A DNA stretch of 64,000 nt from an uncultured Gammaproteobacteria bacterium (GCA_964394645.1 CAYMYC010000001.1:117299-181298); one strand, 5' to 3'; positions 3,167 through 49,648 are shown, counted from the stretch's first letter. The notes: generated from the sequence alone by a model not told the origin. Made by a program: numbers and translations.

Positions 3167-6100
3167 ATGGATAATAATTTAGCTAAAAAAAGACAAAATA
3201 GAAAATTTGACGCAATTAATATATCAGACTTTAAGGGTCTTAAAATTTTAGTTGCAGATCCAACCACCATAAAAGATCTTTCATATGGTGAGGTAACAAA
3301 ACCGGAAACGATTAACTATAGAACTTATCGACCTGAAAAAGACGGATTGTTTGATGAGAGAATTTTCGGTCCTACGAAAGATTTTGAATGTTATTGTGGA
3401 AAATATAAAAGAATACGCTACAAAGGAATTGTTTGTGATAGGTGTGGGGTTGAGGTAACTTATTCTCGTGTGAGACGAGAACGTATGGGGCATATTTCAC
3501 TCGCAACACCTGTGGTGCATGTATGGTTTTCTAAAGGAACTCCTTCTAAGCTATCTACGTTATTAGATATTTCTCAGAAAGAGCTTGAGTCAGTTGTATA
3601 TTTTGCTTCATACCTAGTCGTTGAGCTTGATGAAGAAAAGAGAAAGGAAGCACAAAAGGTATTGGCGGAATTAAAGAGCAAGAGAATTGAAAAAATAAAA
3701 GAACAAGTTGAGGAAGAAAGAGAAAAATTAGCACAAGAAGAAGCGGATAAGTTGAAGGAGATTGAAGCAACTCTTTCAGAAGAGCAAAAAAAATTAGTTC
3801 TTGAGGAAACTAGAGTAAGCTTCAGACAGAAAAACATAGCTTTAGATAAAAGACTTGAGACAGAAAGCGCAAGAACTGAAGAGATTCTTACTCGCGTATC
3901 AGATATTGTTAAAAGTCTAAAACTTTGGAATGTGTTGTCTGAAGAAGAATATGTACGCCTAATTGAATACGATATCCCACTGTTTTTCGAGGTTTCAACG
4001 GGTGCACAAGCAGTACTTGCTGCCATTGAGTCAGTCGACACGCAAAAGCTTGTGGGTGAGCTTCGTGAGGAAGTTAAAAAATCATCTGGTCAAAAGCAAT
4101 TAAAATTGCTAAAAAGACTGCACCTTATCGAGTCAATCAATAAGGCAGGATTCAAGCCGGATTCGCTAATCTTGAGAATTCTTCCAGTTCTTCCACCAGA
4201 TCTTCGACCAATGGTTCAACTTAATGGTGGACGATTCGCAACATCAGATCTAAACGATCTTTACAGGCGCGTTATTAATAGAAATAACAGACTAAAGCAT
4301 CTTATTTCATTGGGTGCCCCTGAAATTATTTTAAGAAATGAGAAGCGAATGCTTCAGGAGGCAGTCGACTATCTAATTGATACCTCAATTAGGACTTCTA
4401 CCACCCAAAGACAATTCAAATCGCTATCTGATATTCTTCGCGGAAAGCAAGGGAGATTTAGAAAAAACCTTTTGGGTAAGCGTGTAGATTACTCTGGTCG
4501 TTCAGTTATTATAGTAGGTCCAGAGTTAACATTAAATCAATGTGGTCTTCCAAAGGAAATGGCGCTTGAGCTTTTTAAGCCATTTGTTATTCGCGAGGTT
4601 ATCACGCGTGGATTAACAACTCCAAATGCAAAAGCTGCAAAACGATTCATTGAGAAACGCCCCCCAGAGGTATTTGATATTTTAGAAGAAATAACTAAAA
4701 ATCACCCTGTGCTTTTAAATCGTGCTCCAACTCTTCACAAGTTAGGAATTCAGGCATTTTATCCTGTTTTAGTTGAAGGATCGGCTATAAGAATTCATCC
4801 ATGTGTTTGTGCAGGATATAATGCTGACTTTGATGGAGATCAAATGGCTATTCACGTTCCATTATCTTCTCGTGCGCAAGAGGAGGCAATTAAGCTTATG
4901 ATGCCTGAGCACAATTTACTTAAACCAGCAGATGGATCTCCAATCACGCTTCCAAATAAAGAAATGGCACTTGGAGTATTCTATTTTACCTCAGTGGACG
5001 AACGGTTAAGACGTGAAGTTCTTCCTCATTTTGTTGATGAGCAGGAAGCATTTTTTGCATTTTCTCTTAAGAAAATTGCACTTCGTGAGCCTATTATGGT
5101 CAGAATTAAAGGGAAACTAATAGATACAAGTATAGGAAGAATTTTATTTAATGAAAAACTTCCAGAAAAGATGCGATATGTAAACACGGAAGTAAAAGCA
5201 TCAACAATTAAGGAATTGGTAACTCGTGCGATGGTTGAGTTAACTGAGGCAGAGGTTGGAAAGTTAATTGATAGCATTAAAGAGATTGGATTTTATTCTG
5301 CGACAATTTCAGGTATTTCTGTTTCTACATTTGATCTTAAAATGCTTGATAACAAGAATCAACTCATTTTAGATGCTGAAAAGAAAGTTATGGACATAGA
5401 AAACGAATATCAGCAGGGATTAATTACTCTTTCCGAGCAAAAAAGATTAATGAATAATGTTTGGCTTGAGGCAACTGAAAAAATAGCAAATCTTACATGG
5501 GAGCTTTTTGATAAAAATGATATGGTAAGAATTATTGCTGAATCAGGTGGAGCCCGTGCTGGGAAGGACCAAATTAAACAGCTTGCGGCTATGCGTGGAC
5601 TTATCTATGATCCGCTTGGTCGTATCGTTGAACTTCCAATTAAATCTAATTTCCGCGAAGGTTTGTCAATTTTTGAATACGTAAACTCTGCGCGTGGATC
5701 AAGAAAAGGTCTTACCGATTCAGCATTAAAAACAGCAGATGCTGGATATCTAACTCGTCGGTTAGTTGATGTGGCTCATGATGTAATTATTCGTGAAATG
5801 GATTGTGGCACAACGGAGGGTATGCCTGTTGACATGAAGTTGCGTGAAAACACAGCGTATATGACCAATATGCTTCTAGGAAGAACGGTAATGCATGATG
5901 TCAGAAAAGGTAAAAATATATACGTTAAGAAGGACGATCAAATAGACCATGATACATTGCCGCAAATTTTAACTGATGAAGTCACGGAAACTATAACAGT
6001 AAGGTCTCCCCTCTATTGTAGATTAAAATATGGTCTTTGCGCCCTTTGTTACGGATGGGATATGAGTTCATATAAACTTGCGGATATGGGTACACCAGTT

Positions 6101-41878: not shown

Positions 41879-43447
41879 TTACGGGATGTAGTATAGTGGT
41901 AGTACGCTGCGCTGGGGGTGCAGTAGTCCGCGTTCGATTCGCGGCATCCCGACACTGAGAGAAGAGCCGGCGGAAAGCTCCGCCGGTGAAAGTCCCGCAA
42001 TCGCGGGACGGATTGAGTCAAAGCCCTTTTTAAAATTGGCGTAAACACAGCCATCCTCTAAAAAGAAGTTCGAGCCGACATGTTTTGCTAGATTTGCCAA
42101 ATCTAGTTGGTTATTTTTTGCGCGCGCTATTTTGTCGCATGACGATGCGACATTTATGAATTCCCTAAGAGGTTCGAGCGAGCGAGAACCTCCCTCCTCC
42201 AAAACCTCTATCTTTTCCTGAATTTTTATCTTTTCTTCAAAGAGTTCATTCTTCTTTCTCTTGTAGTTATCGCCCTCAATGTCCCCCTCAAGATAACTAT
42301 CAAGAAGAATGTCCATCTTCTTATCGAGAGACGAAGCTTCCTCTTTTAATTTTCTCATCCTTACATCCGATAAGCCTTTTTCGGATATTTCATCCCTTTC
42401 TACTAACCCCAGCCACCGGTCGCGCCATGAGGTAGGGATGGAAACGGATAAAACAATTTTTCTTAATTGGTCTTCAAGTTCTTGGGCAGTCACCATTTTT
42501 TGGGAACACGGACCCATCTTTTTGGTACAGCGGTAATAAATATAAGTTGCCGAACGGTTAGTCCCTTTATAAAACTTTACATGCCTTTCGGCAGTTACGG
42601 AAGCACCGCACTCTTTACAGCGAAGAAGACCCAAAAACGTAAAGACCGGAAGCTTACTATTTTGCCTAACTTTTCTATTTAACTTTTCCTGGACTTTATT
42701 GAACAACTCTTTAGAGATGAAAGTCTTGTGGGTCCCGAGATGATACTCGCCGTTGTATTTTAAAATGCCGATGTAGAATTTGTTGGACAATATCTTTCTG
42801 ACTTGGTTAAGGTGTAAAGGCTTTCCGTTTTCCTTTTTTATCCCCAATTTTAAAAAGTAATTTGAAATATCCGTAAAGGTTTTATCCTGTTCGCAAAACA
42901 ACTCAAATGCCCCTTTTATGGCCCGAGCTTCGTTTGGGACTATATCAATGCCTCGAGTCTTCGGGTTGTTGGAATAACCATAGGTAGTCTTCCCAGGCCA
43001 GACGCCATTTCGTATCTTTTGCCGAAGCCCCCTTTTAACATTCTCGCTAAGATTGTCGATGTAATATTTGCTTTGGCCGAAGGCGATATTTAACATGAAC
43101 TTTCCCTGTGGAGTGTTATCAAACCAAAATGTAGGAAACTTTAAATCCTTTAATTTTCCGGTATCAAGCAAATAGATGATCTTGCCCCCGTCAATAGAAT
43201 TTCTTGCAAGTCTGTCCGGATGCCAAGCAAGAATACCACCGGCTCTGCCTCTTTCGATAAGTTGCATGACTTTAGCAAATTTTTCCCGTCCTGGGGCTTT
43301 GGCGGTCTTTGCCTCTTCAATAACTTCGAGGATCTCAAGCTTCTCCCGTTTTGCGAACTCAAAAAGCTCAGCAATTTGCGCTTCAATGGATAAAACCTGC
43401 TTATCGGCTTCGTCTCTTGATTTACGGCAGTAAATTATGTATTTCAT
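41879..43447 (-). CDS. Large serine recombinase (resolvase/invertase catalytic domain + recombinase domain + Zn ribbon + coiled coil)
   Basis: N-terminal YCRKSRDE catalytic-Ser motif; Cys-rich ribbon (CKECG...CTKKMGPC); 522 aa. The last ~55 codons are read through IR1-L and antisense to tRNA-Pro. Confidence 0.85.
   Translation of the reverse strand: MKYIIYCRKSRDEADKQVLSIEAQIAELFEFAKREKLEILEVIEEAKTAKAPGREKFAKVMQLIERGRAGGILAWHPDRLARNSIDGGKIIYLLDTGKLKDLKFPTFWFDNTPQGKFMLNIAFGQSKYYIDNLSENVKRGLRQKIRNGVWPGKTTYGYSNNPKTRGIDIVPNEARAIKGAFELFCEQDKTFTDISNYFLKLGIKKENGKPLHLNQVRKILSNKFYIGILKYNGEYHLGTHKTFISKELFNKVQEKLNRKVRQNSKLPVFTFLGLLRCKECGASVTAERHVKFYKGTNRSATYIYYRCTKKMGPCSQKMVTAQELEDQLRKIVLSVSIPTSWRDRWLGLVERDEISEKGLSDVRMRKLKEEASSLDKKMDILLDSYLEGDIEGDNYKRKKNELFEEKIKIQEKIEVLEEGGSRSLEPLREFINVASSCDKIARAKNNQLDLANLAKHVGSNFFLEDGCVYANFKKGFDSIRPAIAGLSPAELSAGSSLSVGMPRIERGLLHPQRSVLPLYYIP
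41882..41952 (+). tRNA. tRNA-Pro (anticodon GGG), hand-folded
   Basis: Cloverleaf: acceptor CGGGATG/CATCCCG, D-arm GTAT-AGTGGTA-GTAC, anticodon stem CTGCG/TGCAG with loop CTGGGGG (G37), T-arm CCGCG-TTCGATT-CGCGG, discriminator A; CCA not encoded. Confidence 0.8.
41950..42052. repeat. IR1-L: ~103-bp inverted repeat arm (near-exact partner at 43487-43590)
   Basis: Reverse complement of 43487-43590 (1 mismatch, 1-nt indel). Contains internal GC hairpins CCGGCGG-aaagct-CCGCCGG and GTCCCGC-aatc-GCGGGAC. Confidence 0.9.
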
Positions 43448-43486
43448 GGCAGTTAAAATTTTCGCGTTTATCTCCTCTTCTTTTTT

Positions 43487-43590
43487 GGCTTGTGTTTACG
43501 CCAATTTCAAAAAGGGCTTTGACTCAATCCGTCCCGCGATTGCGGGACTTTCACCGGCGGAGCTTTCCGCCGGCTCTTCTCTCAGTGTCG
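43487..43590. repeat. IR1-R: inverted copy of IR1-L, 40 nt upstream of the recombinase start
   Basis: Direct alignment to the reverse complement of 41950-42052. Confidence 0.9.
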
Positions 43591-43647
43591 AGATCTATGA
43601 AAAAGTTAGAACTCTTCTTTGTTAGCTCGGCCGCTTCGCGGCCTCGC
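43587..43647. repeat. IR2-L: 61-bp inverted repeat arm abutting IR1-R through a shared GTCG
   Basis: Exact reverse complement of 48923-48984; contains GGCCGC-ttc-GCGGCC hairpin. Confidence 0.9.
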
Positions 43648-43876
43648 CAAAACATGTCGGCTCGAATTTGAAACGCGAAAATTTTTTTCAATTTAAAATG
43701 GCCGCTCTGGTTGAACACAACAGGATCTCTCCAATTGTCCAAAGCGGCCATCAAAAAAGAGATCCAAAAATGTTGTGTTCGATTTTAATATACCAGTTTC
43801 ACGAGTTTAATCAACTAAGAGTATCTATAACAAATATATAGTTTTGCTACAATTAAAAAAGATGTGAACATCTAGT

Positions 43877-45691
43877 ATGAAATTTCCCATTAAGAAATTG
43901 TCCGAGTTTAGAACAACTATTAAATCATCAAAGAGATTGCTGGGGTTACTTTGGAACATTGATAAATGGCTATTTACAGGAAATTTGATTTCAGTAAGTG
44001 TTCCAGCAATTATTCCTTTTGTTAACGCTTATATCTATAAGCTTATTATTGATTTAATTATTGCGGGAGTCGGTAGTACTGACTTTGACTATCAGCAACT
44101 TTTTTGGCTTATAGCCATGAGAGTAGGCACACTTTTTATACAAGATGCTGCTTTTTCTGCACAAAACTATTTTGAAATGCTTCTTTGGACGAAATTTCCT
44201 GTGCATCTTTATCAAGCTGTTCTTACAAAACTATCAGATTTAGATGTTCAATACTTTGAAGATAGTTCTTTTAAAGATAGATTGGAAAAGGTAAGAGAGG
44301 CATATGCATGGAGGCCGTTAAATATGCTCTCACATCTGTTCTACAGCTTCCAAGGCGTATTACAAGTTTTAATTGCACTAGTTGCAATAGCAACCCTTAA
44401 TTGGTTTTTAATCTTTTTAATCCTTCTTGTGGCTATCCCAACATTTGTGAATCAAACTCACTACGCAAAAATCACTTGGGGTGTATGGCAGGATAACTCT
44501 CCCTATAGAAAGAAGTTTTGGTACTTATCAGATTTAATTCAGGGGGGACAAAGTGTGAAAGAGATAAAAATTTTTCAAATGGCCCCAAAGTTTTTGTCTG
44601 AACTGACTAACATCTATAACAAGTTTGTTAAAGACAATGCAAAAGTAGCTAAAAAGCAACTTCGTACAAATATCTTATTTAACATGCTTGGTACGGGTGT
44701 ATATATTGGAATTGAGATCTTTATTATTCTTGCTGCCGTTGCAAAGAGGATTTCTATAGGGGATATAACCTACTTTACAGCTGTAGTTAGTAATTTCCAA
44801 AATGGAGTCAATGGATTATTCCGTAATACTTCTCAATTGTTTGACCAAAGTCTTTATGTTCAGGAGATGTTTGAAGTTTTAGATATTAAGTCAAAAATAA
44901 CCCAACCTGCTAATGCTGTAAAAATAGACATACATGAAGGACCTAAAATTGAGTTCAGAAATGTAAGTTTTATTTATCCCGGGGCCGGAGAAAAAATCCT
45001 CAATGATTTTTCCCTGACAATTGAACCGGGTCAGAAGATTGCGTTTGTTGGAGAAAATGGCGCTGGTAAAACAACAATTGTGAAATTATTAGCCCGATTT
45101 TATGATGTAAACGAAGGGGAAATCTTAGTAAATGGCATTAACCTTAAAGAACTTGATTTACCAACTTGGTATAAAACTTTAGGGGTTCTCTTTCAAGACT
45201 TTATTAGGTATGAGTACCCATTTCACGAGAATATATACTTTGGAAAGATTTTTGAGCCTGAAAATATTGAGGAAATTAAGCATGCTGCAAAATTGGCAGG
45301 AGCAGATACCGTAGCTTCACAGTTACCTAAGGGCTACGACCAAATGCTTGGAAAGACTTTTGAGGGAGGGATTGATTTATCTGCAGGCCAATGGCAAAAA
45401 GTGGCGCTAGCAAGAGGTTTTCTACGAGATGCCCCTATTCTAATATTAGATGAGCCAACGGCAGCAATTGACGCGAAAGCGGAAGCAGAGATATTTGATA
45501 GGGTGGAAAGGTTATCTAAAGATAAAACTGTAATTATAATTTCCCATAGATTTTCTACCGTAAGAAATGCCGATAAGATTTACGTGATAGAGAAAGGTAA
45601 AATAAAAGAAGATGGCAGCCACGAACAGCTTATGAGGGAAAATGGAACTTATGCAACCCTATTTAACCTTCAAGCAAAAGGTTATAAATAA
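43877..45691 (+). CDS. ABC transporter, fused permease/ATPase (type I exporter)
   Basis: 6 TM N-terminal domain; NBD with Walker A GENGAGKTT, signature LSAGQ, Walker B ILILDE. Confidence 0.9.
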   Translation: MKFPIKKLSEFRTTIKSSKRLLGLLWNIDKWLFTGNLISVSVPAIIPFVNAYIYKLIIDLIIAGVGSTDFDYQQLFWLIAMRVGTLFIQDAAFSAQNYFEMLLWTKFPVHLYQAVLTKLSDLDVQYFEDSSFKDRLEKVREAYAWRPLNMLSHLFYSFQGVLQVLIALVAIATLNWFLIFLILLVAIPTFVNQTHYAKITWGVWQDNSPYRKKFWYLSDLIQGGQSVKEIKIFQMAPKFLSELTNIYNKFVKDNAKVAKKQLRTNILFNMLGTGVYIGIEIFIILAAVAKRISIGDITYFTAVVSNFQNGVNGLFRNTSQLFDQSLYVQEMFEVLDIKSKITQPANAVKIDIHEGPKIEFRNVSFIYPGAGEKILNDFSLTIEPGQKIAFVGENGAGKTTIVKLLARFYDVNEGEILVNGINLKELDLPTWYKTLGVLFQDFIRYEYPFHENIYFGKIFEPENIEEIKHAAKLAGADTVASQLPKGYDQMLGKTFEGGIDLSAGQWQKVALARGFLRDAPILILDEPTAAIDAKAEAEIFDRVERLSKDKTVIIISHRFSTVRNADKIYVIEKGKIKEDGSHEQLMRENGTYATLFNLQAKGYK

Positions 45692-45735
45692 ACTTTTTTT
45701 CCCAAAAGACAATTAACCCATCGAGTGGCGGCACA

Positions 45736-46275
45736 CTATTTTCTATTTCTTGAGGCATATCGACGAAGAGATTCACTACCGACAAGGGCACCCATGAAGC
45801 TTACTGATGCTAGAAAGGATGCTGCAGCTCTATTGTGAGAATCTTTCCCAACCTCTTTACTATCATCTTTCTTAAGATCCTCCTCCAGATACTTTAATAC
45901 CATGTCTCTTTTTTCCTCTACTGGAAGTTCTTCGAAGCCATCTAGTTTTTCTTTGTTCTCTTCGTAGAAGTCCTTTACTTGATCTGGTATCGCTTGCTCT
46001 AATCCTTCAAAAGTAAACCCTTGCAAAGGGAGGGGGTCAACATCGTCAACTTGATCTTTGATTTTAGCTTCATTTCTTGCGTCTCCATATGCTACTGAAT
46101 CGTAAGTAACTGATGGAAGGAATGTTGCCATAGATGCAAGACCCGCTATACCCATTGCCGCATTTAGACCCTTCCACCCACGATGCTCATTTCTTGGGGA
46201 TTGTTCCCTCAACGTGTCTTCTTGACCCAACTGATCTTGCTGTTCTTCTTCCATATAGTAAAGTGAGTTTAACAA
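45736..46275 (-). CDS. Hypothetical acidic protein
   Basis: 179 aa, Glu/Asp-rich; no family assignable; inside the IR2-bounded cargo. Confidence 0.45.
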   Translation of the reverse strand: MLNSLYYMEEEQQDQLGQEDTLREQSPRNEHRGWKGLNAAMGIAGLASMATFLPSVTYDSVAYGDARNEAKIKDQVDDVDPLPLQGFTFEGLEQAIPDQVKDFYEENKEKLDGFEELPVEEKRDMVLKYLEEDLKKDDSKEVGKDSHNRAAASFLASVSFMGALVGSESLRRYASRNRK

Positions 46276-46378
46276 CTCTCAAATTTTCTGTCAAATTTGT
46301 GTAACCCATCAAAAAGGCTGACTGAGTTGGATAAATAGACTTTTGACTTTTAAATTAGCAGTGTGATTCAATAGGTTA

Positions 46379-47068
46379 ATGGATGGTGACATAGAAAGTT
46401 CTCCTCAATCGGTGATTACATCACTTGATGTCAGCGAAAATAAAGCCAACTTCATGCATGAAGACCAAAAAGAAGCACCCGAAGCTCCAGAGTTTGGTAT
46501 TAAACTCTCTCCTGGTATACGATTGTTTCATGGAAGGTCGTCAACCGAAGACATTGATATCTGGCCCCTTCCGGTCGCCAAAAGAACGGTCAATGGTCTT
46601 GGGTTTTATTGCACAACCGACCCAGCAATTGCAAATCCATACGCTAAGATAGATCTAAGAAATGAATCTGCCGCCCGGGTTTATCCTCTTACACCGAAAG
46701 AAGAATTAACGCTTTTTAACGGTTTTATAAAAGATAAAGGTACTTTTTCAAAATATCTAGCAGAGAAAATTTTTGATGAAAATGATGAGAGAAAAGAAAA
46801 GTTTTTAGAAGAGATTAGAAGACTTAGGGAGATGAATAAAGATGGATTCGTTTTCAGCGATAATGTATTAGGAGTAATTCTGTCTTTCGTTGATGAGGAA
46901 AAAGCAAAAGATCTTGAGGAAAAGAAAATTCTTGAAAATGAAGTTCTGAAAAAGGTAGGTTATGATGGTAAAGGATGCGAGGAAAACGGTGTTATGGATG
47001 ATACAATTCTGATTTTTGATCCTGGAAAATTAGAAACGGAATTTAATGCAGAGCAAAAAGCCGCATAG
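46379..47068 (+). CDS. Hypothetical protein
   Basis: 229 aa; no confident family; weak RLFHGRSST motif noted. Confidence 0.5.
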   Translation: MDGDIESSPQSVITSLDVSENKANFMHEDQKEAPEAPEFGIKLSPGIRLFHGRSSTEDIDIWPLPVAKRTVNGLGFYCTTDPAIANPYAKIDLRNESAARVYPLTPKEELTLFNGFIKDKGTFSKYLAEKIFDENDERKEKFLEEIRRLREMNKDGFVFSDNVLGVILSFVDEEKAKDLEEKKILENEVLKKVGYDGKGCEENGVMDDTILIFDPGKLETEFNAEQKAA

Positions 47069-47122
47069 CAATCATAGAGTGAATTCCACTAAAATAGATT
47101 CATTAGATCGAGAAGTAAATAT

Positions 47123-47506
47123 ATGGAAAAACGAATTGGCACAGTAGGATTCATTGTTAATAACAATAAAGTTTTGTTAGCACATATTCAATACCCAGAG
47201 GGCAAAAAATTATGGAATGGGATCGGAGGATTTGTTAATAAAGGAGAAAAACTTGAGGACGCCTTAATAAGAGAAATCAGCGAAGAAACATATATACAAG
47301 TTAGCAAAGACGAAGTGCGTTTGGTGAAAGAATTGGACGAGGATATCAGACTTTTAATTTTTAAAATTAATAACTGGAAAGGAGAACTTAAAATTAAAGA
47401 CTCATCAATTAAGGAGTTAAGGTGGTTTAAATTTGATGAAATTCCATTTTCAGAAATGCATGATGGAAATGAAAAGTGGCTACCTGACTTATTAAAAACA
47501 CCATAG
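47123..47506 (+). CDS. Nudix hydrolase
   Basis: Nudix box GGFVNKGEKLEDALIREISEETYI. Confidence 0.8.
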   Translation: MEKRIGTVGFIVNNNKVLLAHIQYPEGKKLWNGIGGFVNKGEKLEDALIREISEETYIQVSKDEVRLVKELDEDIRLLIFKINNWKGELKIKDSSIKELRWFKFDEIPFSEMHDGNEKWLPDLLKTP

Positions 47507-47540
47507 TTACATTGTAATTTCGTATACTAATATTAATACA

Positions 47541-48338
47541 ATGAAAATTCATTTTATTGGATTATCATGTTTTCTTATTGAAAATGCCGCTGGCTTTCGA
47601 ATACTAGTTGATCCTTTTGAGGATAACCCCGAGTGGACGTTGGGTCCTATATTTCCAAAGGAATTTAGCAGTAAACCCTTTGGAACAAATATTGTATTGA
47701 TGTCTGAAACTGATGCTGATCATGCAAGGGCTCCACATGAATGGCAACAAAATGCACCTATTGTAAAGCCTGACAATAATCCTTTTCCAAATTTAAATTT
47801 GAGTGGTACATTAGTGCATGAATGGAATGGTGAAGCTTGCATTGCCTGGCATTATACTATTGATGGTATACGGCTTGCTCATTTTTCAGACCATGCTCAC
47901 CCGTTGACCGTAGAACAACTTACAGAAATAGGAAATCCCGATATTATCTTTTACCCACTTCCAAAAGTATCGTGGGACGATCAAGAAGCGTTTAATATCA
48001 TAAGAGAAGATATTAGCAAGCTCAAACCAAAAATTGTAATTTGGGCACATTTTATAGCACCTAAAAATATGCCTTCAGTGGATGATAAAGAAGCGCTCAG
48101 ATCATATTTTATCCAATATTTTAAAGACAACGCATCGACTAACTTGGGATACAAAGGTGAAGACAGTTTTATGGAATTAGGAAATATGATATACAGTGGT
48201 TTCAAACTCACAAATGAATTAAACGGAAAGATAATGGAAGCACCTACGCTGGAGCTTGACCAAACAACAGTTGATGCTTTTCAGCAACCAACTCCATTTT
48301 TCTTCACCAGTATGCTTGCTACTTCAAAAACTGAATAA
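47541..48338 (+). CDS. MBL-fold-like hydrolase (paralog of 8207-8869)
   Basis: N-terminal beta-lactamase-fold pattern (FLIENAAGFRILVDP..ETDADHA). Confidence 0.55.
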   Translation: MKIHFIGLSCFLIENAAGFRILVDPFEDNPEWTLGPIFPKEFSSKPFGTNIVLMSETDADHARAPHEWQQNAPIVKPDNNPFPNLNLSGTLVHEWNGEACIAWHYTIDGIRLAHFSDHAHPLTVEQLTEIGNPDIIFYPLPKVSWDDQEAFNIIREDISKLKPKIVIWAHFIAPKNMPSVDDKEALRSYFIQYFKDNASTNLGYKGEDSFMELGNMIYSGFKLTNELNGKIMEAPTLELDQTTVDAFQQPTPFFFTSMLATSKTE

Positions 48339-48339
48339 T

Positions 48340-48920
48340 ATCAAAACAAGTCATAAGCCTGTGGTGATCCACATCGGTTTTTTGGATTTTTCTTTTCTTG
48401 GGCGGCATCCACCGCCCCCGCCCGCATGGAATTGCGCCCTAAAAAGAGAAAAATACTTTACTGGTAGCCAATGAATTAGTAGGAACTATACAAAGTATTT
48501 TTCTCCCACACGAGCCCCGCGAGAATTTGTCTTGTTAAAAGAGAACGCGGGGCGAGTCAGTAGGTGTCTTCTTAATGGTTTTAAACAGGAAGGGACTAAA
48601 TAAAAGTCGGCGGGGGCGAATAAGCGGACACCCCTCCGACGGCGCTTCCTTTTTAAATGGAAATAATTTTTCGGAAGAGACTGTATTAAGGTTTTAGAAC
48701 TGGCAAAACTTTGGCGAGTTGCGCCTTAGTGCAACCTGCGCCCAAAGGAAGGGGTCGCCGCCACAATATCTTGGGTGGGTTGGGTTTTGTAGGATAAGAC
48801 TCACGGTTTGTTTTATATTCTTTTTTAAAGGGAGTACAATAATCCAATATTTATAATTTGTCCGCGTAGGGAGGGATTTTGGGACAATGACAATTTCTTT
48901 TTTCTTCGCGCGCAAAAAAT
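48340..48920. other. GC-rich hairpin-dense noncoding region (candidate structured RNA or recombination region)
   Basis: Multiple perfect GC stems in AT-rich context: GGGCGG-catcca-CCGCCC, GCCCCGCG...CGCGGGGC, GTCGGCGGGG...CCCCTCCGAC, GTTGC...GCAAC. No credible ORF. Confidence 0.5.
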
Positions 48921-48922
48921 AA

Positions 48923-48984
48923 CCTAGCGAGGCCGCGAAGCGGCCGAGCTAACAAAGAAGAGTTCTAACTTTTTCATAGATCTC
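48923..48984. repeat. IR2-R: inverted copy of IR2-L closing the 5.3-kb cargo segment
   Basis: Exact reverse complement of 43587-43647. Confidence 0.9.
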
Positions 48985-49051
48985 GACTGAATAAAATATG
49001 AGGAAATGATTTTCAAGAACCTCTTCAGTAAGTGTCTGGTATACTGAGAAA

Positions 49052-49648
49052 ATGAATTTGTTTACTTTTTTGCTTCAGAGCAATATCCAAGTAATTATAG
49101 GAGTGCATCTAGTAGGTGTAGTAATAGGATTTGGAGGCGCAATAATCACAGATATACTTTTTTTAAAATTCGTAAGAAATGGCAAAATCGTCAAAAGTGA
49201 GGTGGGTGTTCTTGTAACTATGTCAAAAATAATTTGGGCAGGCATTTTGATAATTGCTGTTACCGGTCTTTTTATTTTACTTTCAGATGTAGAACGCTAT
49301 ACTCATTCAGCAAAATTTTTACTTAAAATGTTGGTGGTTTGGGTAATAGTTATTAATGGATTAATCTTAAATTTTGTTATAACGCCTACATTACCTCTTG
49401 TCAATTTTGGGAAAATAAGTAATTCAAAGGATAAGACAAATAAAATAAGAAGCTTAGTATTTATAACAGGTGCAGTTTCCGCAACTTCATGGTGGACTGT
49501 TTTTATATTAGGAATGTTACGTTTTTCTCCTGTGTCTTTTACAGTTCTTCTGAGTATCTATTTGTTAATATTGGCAGGTGCAATTATAGGGAGCCTTGTA
49601 TTAAATAGTTTACTTGCAAAAGGCATTATCAAATATTCATCTTTGTAG
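49052..49648 (+). CDS. Integral membrane protein (hypothetical)
   Basis: 198 aa, about 5 TM helices. Confidence 0.5.
   Translation: MNLFTFLLQSNIQVIIGVHLVGVVIGFGGAIITDILFLKFVRNGKIVKSEVGVLVTMSKIIWAGILIIAVTGLFILLSDVERYTHSAKFLLKMLVVWVIVINGLILNFVITPTLPLVNFGKISNSKDKTNKIRSLVFITGAVSATSWWTVFILGMLRFSPVSFTVLLSIYLLILAGAIIGSLVLNSLLAKGIIKYSSL

Follow-up and report, generated by a model that had tools for sequence, protein, structure and literature searches.

The core of a GC-rich block near the end of a mobile island (positions 48396 to 48796 of the 64-kb stretch of DNA analyzed here, called the window below) is probably the gene for a new noncoding RNA of ~400 nucleotides (nt), complex in its fold and encoded on the + strand; we put the probability of this reading at roughly 60%. 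Most likely it represents a class of large noncoding RNA not described before, one that belongs with the backbone of serine recombinase islands in Patescibacteria. On comparative sequence grounds the block is a well-supported candidate RNA gene, showing compensatory changes in several helices and no conserved reading frame. An earlier, sequence-only reading of this DNA had offered a structured noncoding RNA carried by the element as one option, to be checked by comparative alignment of homologous elements; that check was positive, because the RNA is kept in seven other large serine recombinase (LSR) islands with compensatory changes and without a conserved frame. Our literature searches turned up no description of such an RNA or of such an island layout.

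Composition and coding potential of the block

The window is a segment of an AT-rich (36.8% GC) bacterial chromosome that includes genes the size of rpoB and rpoC, a ribosomal-protein operon, recA, and recX. The block lies in a gene-free interval of 713 nt (48339-49051), bounded by an MBL-fold gene (47541-48338) and a gene for a membrane protein of 198 amino acids (aa) (49052-49648). The earlier claim that no plausible open reading frame (ORF) is present holds: ORFs in the interval are short and unconserved, and those of the block had no Pfam match, even at E ≤ 1. Nor did we recognize, by the same lack of Pfam matches, the degraded foreign gene that a translated search had been proposed to reveal. 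Stop-free stretches switch frame between copies of the core, so no reading frame is conserved; a seemingly conserved − strand ORF (64 to 108 stop-free codons per copy) was rejected, as its frames switch in this way and its translations are of low complexity and rich in Arg, Pro, and Ser.

Windowed GC content confirmed that the block is GC-rich relative to its surroundings: 0.437 for 48340-48920 and 0.479 for the core, which is the most GC-rich 400-nt stretch in the 64 kb; the window as a whole has 0.368, and the cargo genes have 0.362. The proposal that this composition marks foreign DNA did not fare as well, since the whole island is foreign, yet its genes show host-like GC content. Exact GC-rich 6-bp hairpin seeds number five in the block against 0.09 expected, a count reached by 0 of 500 shuffles, and 17 of the 20 such seeds in the whole window fall in the block and the att sites of the island. 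The minimum free energy of the block is −231 kcal/mol, with z = −5.0 for the + strand and −4.2 for the − strand relative to shuffled controls.

The hairpin density described before is therefore real in the sense that enrichment far exceeds that of shuffled sequence, but comparison with relatives indicates that the first G/C runs form long-range helices instead of, or besides, a local hairpin. Three of the stem-loops listed as perfect are so (GGGCGG/CCGCCC at 48400-48417; GCCCCGCG/CGCGGGGC at 48514-48553, whose loop is 24 nt as claimed; and GTTGC/GCAAC at 48718-48735), but GTCGGCGGGG...CCCCTCCGAC has one mismatch. As for the T-rich tracts said to follow hairpins, the hairpin and T-run at 48360-48383 seem to terminate the upstream gene and not to belong to the RNA. 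Neither blastn nor a profile search found a second copy of the block in the window, which speaks against a dispersed repeat of the REP or MITE kind.

TABLE 1 Features of the island and of the candidate RNA, in coordinates of the window
Feature	Position	Strand	Remarks
Large serine recombinase (LSR) gene	41879-43447	−	Resolvase, Recombinase, and Zn_ribbon_recom domains
tRNA-Pro(GGG)	41882-41953	+	Integration target; attL at 3′ end
Internal inverted full attP copy (P arm, core, P′ arm)	43491-43647	−	Between LSR gene and cargo
Terminator-like hairpin plus T-run	48360-48383	+	3′ of MBL-fold gene; left limit of RNA region
Candidate structured-RNA core, ~400 nt	48396-48796	+	Conserved in eight LSR islands; alignment A3, covariation tests
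Closing helix, 5′ strand GGCGGC	48401-48406	+	Pairs with GCCGCC, 48757-48762
C-tract CCGCCCCCGCC, 5′ strand of long-range helix	48412-48422	+	With GGCGGGGGCG at 48609-48618; encloses 5′ arm
14-bp perfect helix GAGAAAAAUACUUU/AAAGUAUUUUUCUC	48446-48505	+	Strands 48446-48459 and 48492-48505
Hairpin GCCCCGCG/CGCGGGGC (GCCCCGC hairpin)	48514-48553	+	Variable loop; within 5′ arm
ACAG, 5′ strand of candidate pseudoknot	48585-48588	+	With CUGU, 48682-48685, inside conserved GGAAGAGACUGUAU (48673-48686)
3′ arm	48630-48756	+	ACCCC (48630-48634) pairs with GGGGU (48751-48755)
GGCGC/GCGCC helix	48641-48645 with 48738-48742	+	Inside 3′ arm
Hairpin GUUGCGC-CUUA-GUGCAAC	48718-48735	+	Inside 3′ arm
Nearly invariant G-tract GGGUGGGU(U)GGG	48773-48784	+	Just after closing helix; nearly identical in 8 of 8 copies
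Att-proximal module, ~130 nt	48797-48926	+	Distinct from core
Right inverted repeat: attP-derived P arm plus 8-bp crossover ATCTCGAC (attR)	48927-48987	+	100% inverted copy of 43587-43647

The island and its att sites

The island spans 7,034 bp (41954-48987), with the 3′ end of the tRNA-Pro(GGG) gene as its insertion site (Table 1). That this stretch is an insertion follows from contigs of other samples (L011, L012, L013, and L016), in which empty sites join 41953 to 48988: there, recA, tRNA-Pro, and the 198-aa gene lie side by side, and the bases shared at the joint are just eight, ATC[C/T]CGAC, an 8-bp overlap. Over 5,000 homologues of the recombinase were found; those with names are few and come from Patescibacteria (Curtissbacteria, Levybacteria, Gottesmanbacteria, and "Patescibacteria group"). 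Cargo genes (43877-48338) encode an ABC exporter, a 179-aa hypothetical protein, an ADP-ribosyltransferase-like protein (a weak match, PF18760, E = 1e-3), a NUDIX hydrolase, and an MBL-fold hydrolase; they are possibly a NAD/ADP-ribose conflict set or a toxin-export set.

The island has three att-like sites: attL, attR, and a complete inverted attP just upstream of the recombinase start. The internal copy is matched in inverted orientation by 41946-42049, over 104 nt, and by 48927-48987, over 61 nt; the latter match bears out the right-hand repeat (IR2-R) of the sequence-only reading, which is perfect over its 61 nt. A GC-rich hairpin in the right arm (48927-48949) covaries between islands. 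The internal inverted attP copy has an identical layout in all relatives examined, and the far inverted copy is detectable in 52 related loci; this conserved island layout is unreported. Inverted att copies could make segments invertible or serve autoregulation; an inverted arrangement was seen in none of nine core-carrying loci.

As a result of this layout, two segments are each flanked by inverted repeats: the recombinase gene, by repeats of ~104 nt (on the attL side and in the internal attP), and the cargo with the candidate RNA, by repeats of 61 to 209 nt that are 82 to 100% identical within each island (the window, L034, L037, L039, L117, L118, and L121). The recombinase ORF continues through the P′ arm and then spans all of the tRNA-Pro gene, which is encoded on the other strand. 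The final ~96 nt of the ORF recur inverted ahead of its own start (41879-42049 and 43491-43594), so an mRNA begun upstream would have 5′ and 3′ ends complementary over ~100 nt. A 22-nt box, CAAAACATGTCGGCTCGAA.TT, in the 3′ part of the recombinase gene (42066-42087) also recurs inverted at 43648-43669, with 95% identity.

Two contigs bear on the history and states of the island. L005 (GCA_041920255.1, JAYRSH010000595.1, 1-3344) matches the right part of the island at 99.9% identity over 2,428 nt, but past the same crossover, ATCTCGAC, its flank is a different one, with a CsbD-like gene and a recA that shares only 75% identity with that of the window. This suggests a recent move of the same island into another species or to another site. 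In L003 (a Logan contig, 5061-5147), the order is block, P arm, core, P′ arm; such a junction is expected of an excised circle or of inverted cargo, but the assembly may instead have been routed through the 61-nt repeat.

Homologous cores in other islands

Relatives were gathered by scanning metagenomes with the LSR, which gave 80 loci with recombinases of 45 to 66% identity, and further loci were reached through LSR homologues; homologues of the block were detected with profile HMMs (nhmmer). A homologous core of ~400 nt is present in L039, L037, L062, L034, L121 (identical to L122), L117, and L118. With the eight-sequence profile, E values range from 2e-93 to 1e-64 over the eight copies (7.5e-90 to 1e-64 in the relatives), and the joint profile found no other match in the window or in the other loci. 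The copies share ~70% nucleotide identity, with conserved stretches interrupted by variable inserts, while the recombinases of the same islands are just 50 to 60% identical.

The placement of the core is constant among the copies: it occupies the island end away from the LSR gene, is encoded on the other strand from that gene, and is separated from the inverted P arm by a short module. The left flank of the core is a different gene, or a gene in a different orientation, in each island; its right flank is the att-proximal module. In L034 (300-764), an IS200-like (Y1 transposase) gene directly follows the core, in place of the usual att-proximal sequence, and in L117 (441-4071) a cluster of nine tRNA genes lies just past the far end of the island. 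The cargo between core and LSR gene is unrelated among core-carrying islands: relatives have a giant surface protein and a Gp49-like toxin, an HTH protein and a citrate transporter, a deacetylase and oxidoreductases, or a YcaO/nitroreductase cluster. Their tRNA targets differ as well (Pro, Gly, and Glu). Because the core is constant and the cargo unrelated, the core belongs to the backbone of the island; it had previously been placed inside the cargo, a position that has to be revised, given that it lies beside the attP-derived arm and is kept while the cargo differs.

The core is not a fixture of the family: it was found in 6 of the 52 loci with a detectable far inverted arm (46 are without it), a count that leaves out the window and L121/L122, which carry the core too. 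It is absent from the closest relatives of the recombinase (L112 to L116, 64 to 71% identity) and from L124 to L126. Its absence from these relatives and from 46 of 52 complete islands means that any role of the RNA is accessory. The segments flanked by inverted repeats measure 4 to 9.6 kb in islands with the core versus mostly 1 to 5 kb in those without.

Other searches for homologues were negative. Relatives of the MBL-fold gene (51% identical) have no similar block downstream, and the block had no blastn match in the phage or plasmid collections. IMG/VR yielded one distant recombinase match, and three motif scans gave high-GC chance matches only, or nothing by profile.

Predicted fold and covariation

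In the fold that we propose for the core (Table 1), the ends of the RNA would meet in a closing helix. The C-tract:G-tract helix would hold the 5′ arm, which varies between subfamilies, and the ACCCC/GGGGU helix would hold the 3′ arm, composed of nested, strongly covarying helices and a likely pseudoknot.

The outer pairs of the closing helix, read from alignment A3, vary yet stay complementary: AAGCGGC/GCCGCUU in L039, UUGGCGGC/GCCGCCAA in L062, AUGGCGGC/GCCGCCAU in L034, and GGUGGCGG/CCGCCACC in L121. Its register is ambiguous because G/C runs repeat: these tracts are nearly invariant and mutually redundant, allowing several pairings both for the closing helix and for the nearly invariant GGGUGGGUGGG tract that follows it, after which the DNA is AT-rich. 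In the C-tract:G-tract helix, 86% of alignment cells are paired over eight sequences, with pairs mostly invariant apart from U·G variants. Within the 5′ arm of the window's subfamily, the covarying 14-bp helix is capped by a loop with a conserved motif, GAAUUAGUA (48473-48481), and homologous helices, read by eye from the alignments, are GGAAAGCACCUU/AAGGUGCUUUCC in L039 and GGGCUACC/GGUAGCCC in L121. The GCCCCGCG/CGCGGGGC stem is identical in four of five subfamily copies (L121 differs), and its loop varies in sequence and length. In the subfamily of L034, L117, and L118, other hairpins replace the 5′ arm; L062 and L034 have extra GC-rich hairpins at one peripheral position.

The helices of the 3′ arm covary strongly. 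Almost every one of the eight copies has its own version of the stem at 48718-48735, yet the two strands always remain fully or almost fully complementary; among these versions are GUUGCGC/GUGCAAC, GCCGCCC/GGGCGGC, GACUCCC/UGGAGUC, GUCCCGC/GCGGGAC, and AGCCGCC/GGCGGCU. The loop of this hairpin is conserved, and the stems of L039 and L062 are one G·U apart. The candidate pseudoknot has four pairs, with 97% of cells paired and two pairs changed on both sides.

Taken together, the four named helices (A3, eight sequences) have 92.3% of cells paired versus 42 to 49% for slid partners, with 10 pairs changed on both sides, and the 3′ domain (alignment A4) has 95.3% versus 33 to 49%, with 11 of 16 pairs changed on both sides; the helices tested were derived from these same alignments, which favors them over the slid controls, and the copies are eight related ones. 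None of 500 shuffles reached any measure observed for the named helices. RNAalifold consensus energies were −47.5 kcal/mol for the core (column shuffles, −0.3 ± 0.6) and −37.5 kcal/mol for the 3′ domain (column shuffles, −1.1 ± 1.5).

Two observations indicate that the RNA is read on the + strand, toward attR: cells of G·U type outnumber those of A·C type in the tested helices (16 versus 3), and the forward strand folds more stably than its reverse complement.

Att-proximal module and transcription signals

The module between the core and the right repeat is also found in LSR islands that lack the core (L112, L123, L028, and L029). It contains a box, GGGAG-TA[A/C]AAT (48830-48840), that resembles a −10 element; a hairpin, TTGTCC/GGACAA (48858-48887), that covaries, being UUUUCC/GGAAAA in L028 and L029; and an 18-nt box, CGCGCGCAAAAAATAACC (48907-48924), that is conserved in many relatives and recurs inverted, with 100% identity, inside the LSR gene (42109-42126). 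The block had also been suggested to be an accessory site: its last ~130 nt, shared with relatives that lack the core, could correspond to such an accessory or regulatory site. We considered a small peptide encoded in the module and rejected it, for its TTG-initiated frame, read by eye, stops after three codons in the window.

Promoter-like sites occur at or just past the end of the core, at 48812-48840 in the window, as TTGATA-17-TATAAT in L121 (11 of 12 consensus positions), and as TTGCTA-17-TAGAAT in L062; these features suggest a putative att-proximal promoter that would drive transcription out past the att site. In the DNA just ahead of the core, a σ70-type consensus scan found no promoter in the window, L037, L062, or L121, and none of the four sources scanned showed an intrinsic terminator after the core on the strand of the RNA. 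On the opposite strand, hairpin-plus-T sites on the core number four in L062 and seven in L121, whereas 1.4 to 1.7 would be expected on the two strands combined; their source is the A-runs that stand ahead of the helices when the core is read in the RNA sense. An array of antisense terminators was nonetheless rejected, because the window has no such site and the G·U bias contradicts it.

Comparison with known RNAs

A covariance-model search of the whole window against Rfam 15 returned tRNA-Pro as the sole match passing the gathering threshold. For 48200-49100 at E ≤ 10, we obtained only microRNA-type chance matches of 8 to 17 bits, and for four relatives at E ≤ 1 only tRNAs. The previously noted lack of resemblance to tmRNA, SRP RNA, 6S RNA, and group II introns is thus upheld, as no model matched the block.

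Among the nearest counterparts are ROOL and GOLLD (PMC12286853), large "ornate" orphan RNAs found on prophages and on other mobile DNA. Like these, the candidate RNA is hundreds of nucleotides long, has many covarying helices and conserved unpaired motifs, lies on mobile DNA near tRNA genes, has no obvious associated protein, and is of unknown function. It differs from them in that the block matches neither the sequence nor the structure of their Rfam models, in its Patescibacteria host, and in occupying a fixed place beside attP in the backbone of a serine recombinase island and not in a phage.

Group I introns are common in Patescibacteria (PMC13011429), and they too are GC-rich folded RNAs of a few hundred nucleotides with a pseudoknot (a candidate here) in the same phylum. 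However, at E ≤ 10 the block has no Rfam group I match, and it interrupts no gene. As to a group I catalytic core, a pseudoknot candidate is present, but with eight sequences no P7-type site can be assigned.

In its place at a fixed end of the element, beside the sequence that is recombined, the RNA recalls HEARO and other omega RNAs (of IscB and TnpB) and the bridge and seek RNAs of IS110/IS1111. Omega and bridge/seek RNAs guide a nuclease or recombinase by base pairing to target or donor, whereas large serine recombinases recognize att sites by protein alone. The candidate RNA is unlike these guides in several respects: the enzyme is a large serine recombinase, the sole shared protein; no IscB, TnpB, or DEDD recombinase lies beside the core; and most members of the family are without the RNA. 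A guide function was examined and rejected for lack of excess complementarity to the tRNA target or attP of the RNA's own island: its longest matches to these are no longer than those to the sites of other islands, though targets differ (Pro, Gly, and Glu). A 9-nt identity, GCGGCATCC, between the 5′ end of the RNA and tRNA-Pro is within chance and is unmatched in other islands.

Possible functions

Our best guess, which rests on position and on analogy with other large RNAs of mobile DNA, is that the core would specify a stable, complex-folded RNA that serves the island itself. We envisage an RNA with a defined three-dimensional fold, acting alone or as a protein scaffold, like the orphan large RNAs. 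It may serve the life cycle of the island (maintenance, or control of transcription across the recombination site) and not the host, as its fixed position and orientation beside attP suggest. In the excised circle as we infer it, the RNA gene, the ~130-nt module, attP, and the recombinase gene would be contiguous, with the variable cargo on the far side. Closed ends, conserved unpaired motifs, variable peripheral helices, and carriage on mobile DNA all favor a stable RNA of this kind. We found no support for the RNA being required for recombination, given the 6 core carriers among 52 loci and the nearest LSR relatives without it; with about one island in seven having the core, the RNA is probably dispensable for recombination itself.

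The core could instead be a cis-acting leader or insulator, that is, a folded part of, or a barrier before, a transcript leaving the island across the recombination site; we regard this as unlikely but as deserving weight. After excision, such a transcript would cross attP and run antisense to the 3′ end of the recombinase gene; inversion of the cargo would turn it into the leader of the recombinase gene; and while the island is integrated, it would extend into the host gene downstream. The constant position and orientation of the core immediately upstream of the att-proximal module fit this idea, as do the full attP copy directly upstream of the recombinase start, through which inversion would put the block before the recombinase gene, and the order of segments in L003, which suits a circle or an inverted state. 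The promoter-like sites of L121, L062, and the window can be cited on both sides: they could drive an outward transcript, but they lie downstream of the core, which therefore need not be in it. Against this idea, one would not usually expect a simple leader or insulator to have a closed 5′/3′ helix, conserved loops, and variable peripheral helices; there are also relatives that do without the core, and the inverted arrangement appeared in 0 of 9 core-carrying loci.

It is rather doubtful that the RNA takes a more specific part in the workings of the recombinase island, either sensing or setting its state by controlling the expression or directionality of the recombinase, or priming an origin of replication. 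The former would apply to islands without a recognizable directionality protein.

The latter, taken by itself, would be a Rep-less, RNA-primed origin of the excised circle, in which the G-run forms an RNA-DNA hybrid that host enzymes process into a primer; we hold it to be quite improbable. Its models are ColE1 RNA II, a folded transcript of ~0.5 kb with an essential G-run that works without any element-encoded protein, and the mitochondrial CSB II primer; in both, the G-run of a folded transcript forms a persistent RNA-DNA hybrid. The candidate RNA is similar in size to RNA II, its nearly invariant G-tract lies at the 3′ end of the fold with AT-rich DNA after it, the islands have no replication gene in common (the recombinase alone is shared), and those with the core have the larger inverted-repeat-flanked segments. 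Yet the case is one of analogy with ColE1 and mitochondrial priming: for this island we found no origin, no antisense regulator corresponding to RNA I, and no evidence of replication or of a replicating circular form, and the G-runs also serve as ordinary helix strands in the RNA.

Should the block instead act as DNA, its hairpins would be accessory binding sites for the recombinase, or a single-strand or transfer origin. The block does adjoin the att site, and the P and P′ arms hold GC-rich hairpins too, of which that of the P arm covaries. We nevertheless judge action as DNA to be highly improbable in view of long-range helices spanning 200 to 360 nt, the strong preference for G·U rather than A·C, the lack of any Rep or relaxase gene common to the islands, and the fact that most islands of the family recombine without the core. 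Finally, although the island was acquired horizontally, a decayed foreign gene or nonfunctional DNA of different composition is scarcely credible for a sequence that retains ~70% nucleotide identity between islands with recombinases just 50 to 60% identical, whose own substitutions are compensatory, and whose frames switch between copies without a Pfam match.

Significance

To our knowledge, few large bacterial RNAs with complex folds have been described, and every class newly added has taught something: HEARO proved, for instance, to be the guide RNA of IscB. The hosts of the present candidate are Patescibacteria, ultrasmall bacteria that form a very large group and have been little studied, and it resides in the backbone of islands whose enzymes, large serine recombinases, are now widely used in genome engineering and are thought to work without RNA. 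Its covariation, clear despite few sequences, makes it a good target for covariance-model searches, structure probing, and cryo-electron microscopy. The conserved layout of this island family, with its internal inverted attP copy, merits study in its own right. If true, a state-sensing RNA or an RNA-primed origin would be the first for elements that move by large serine recombinases.
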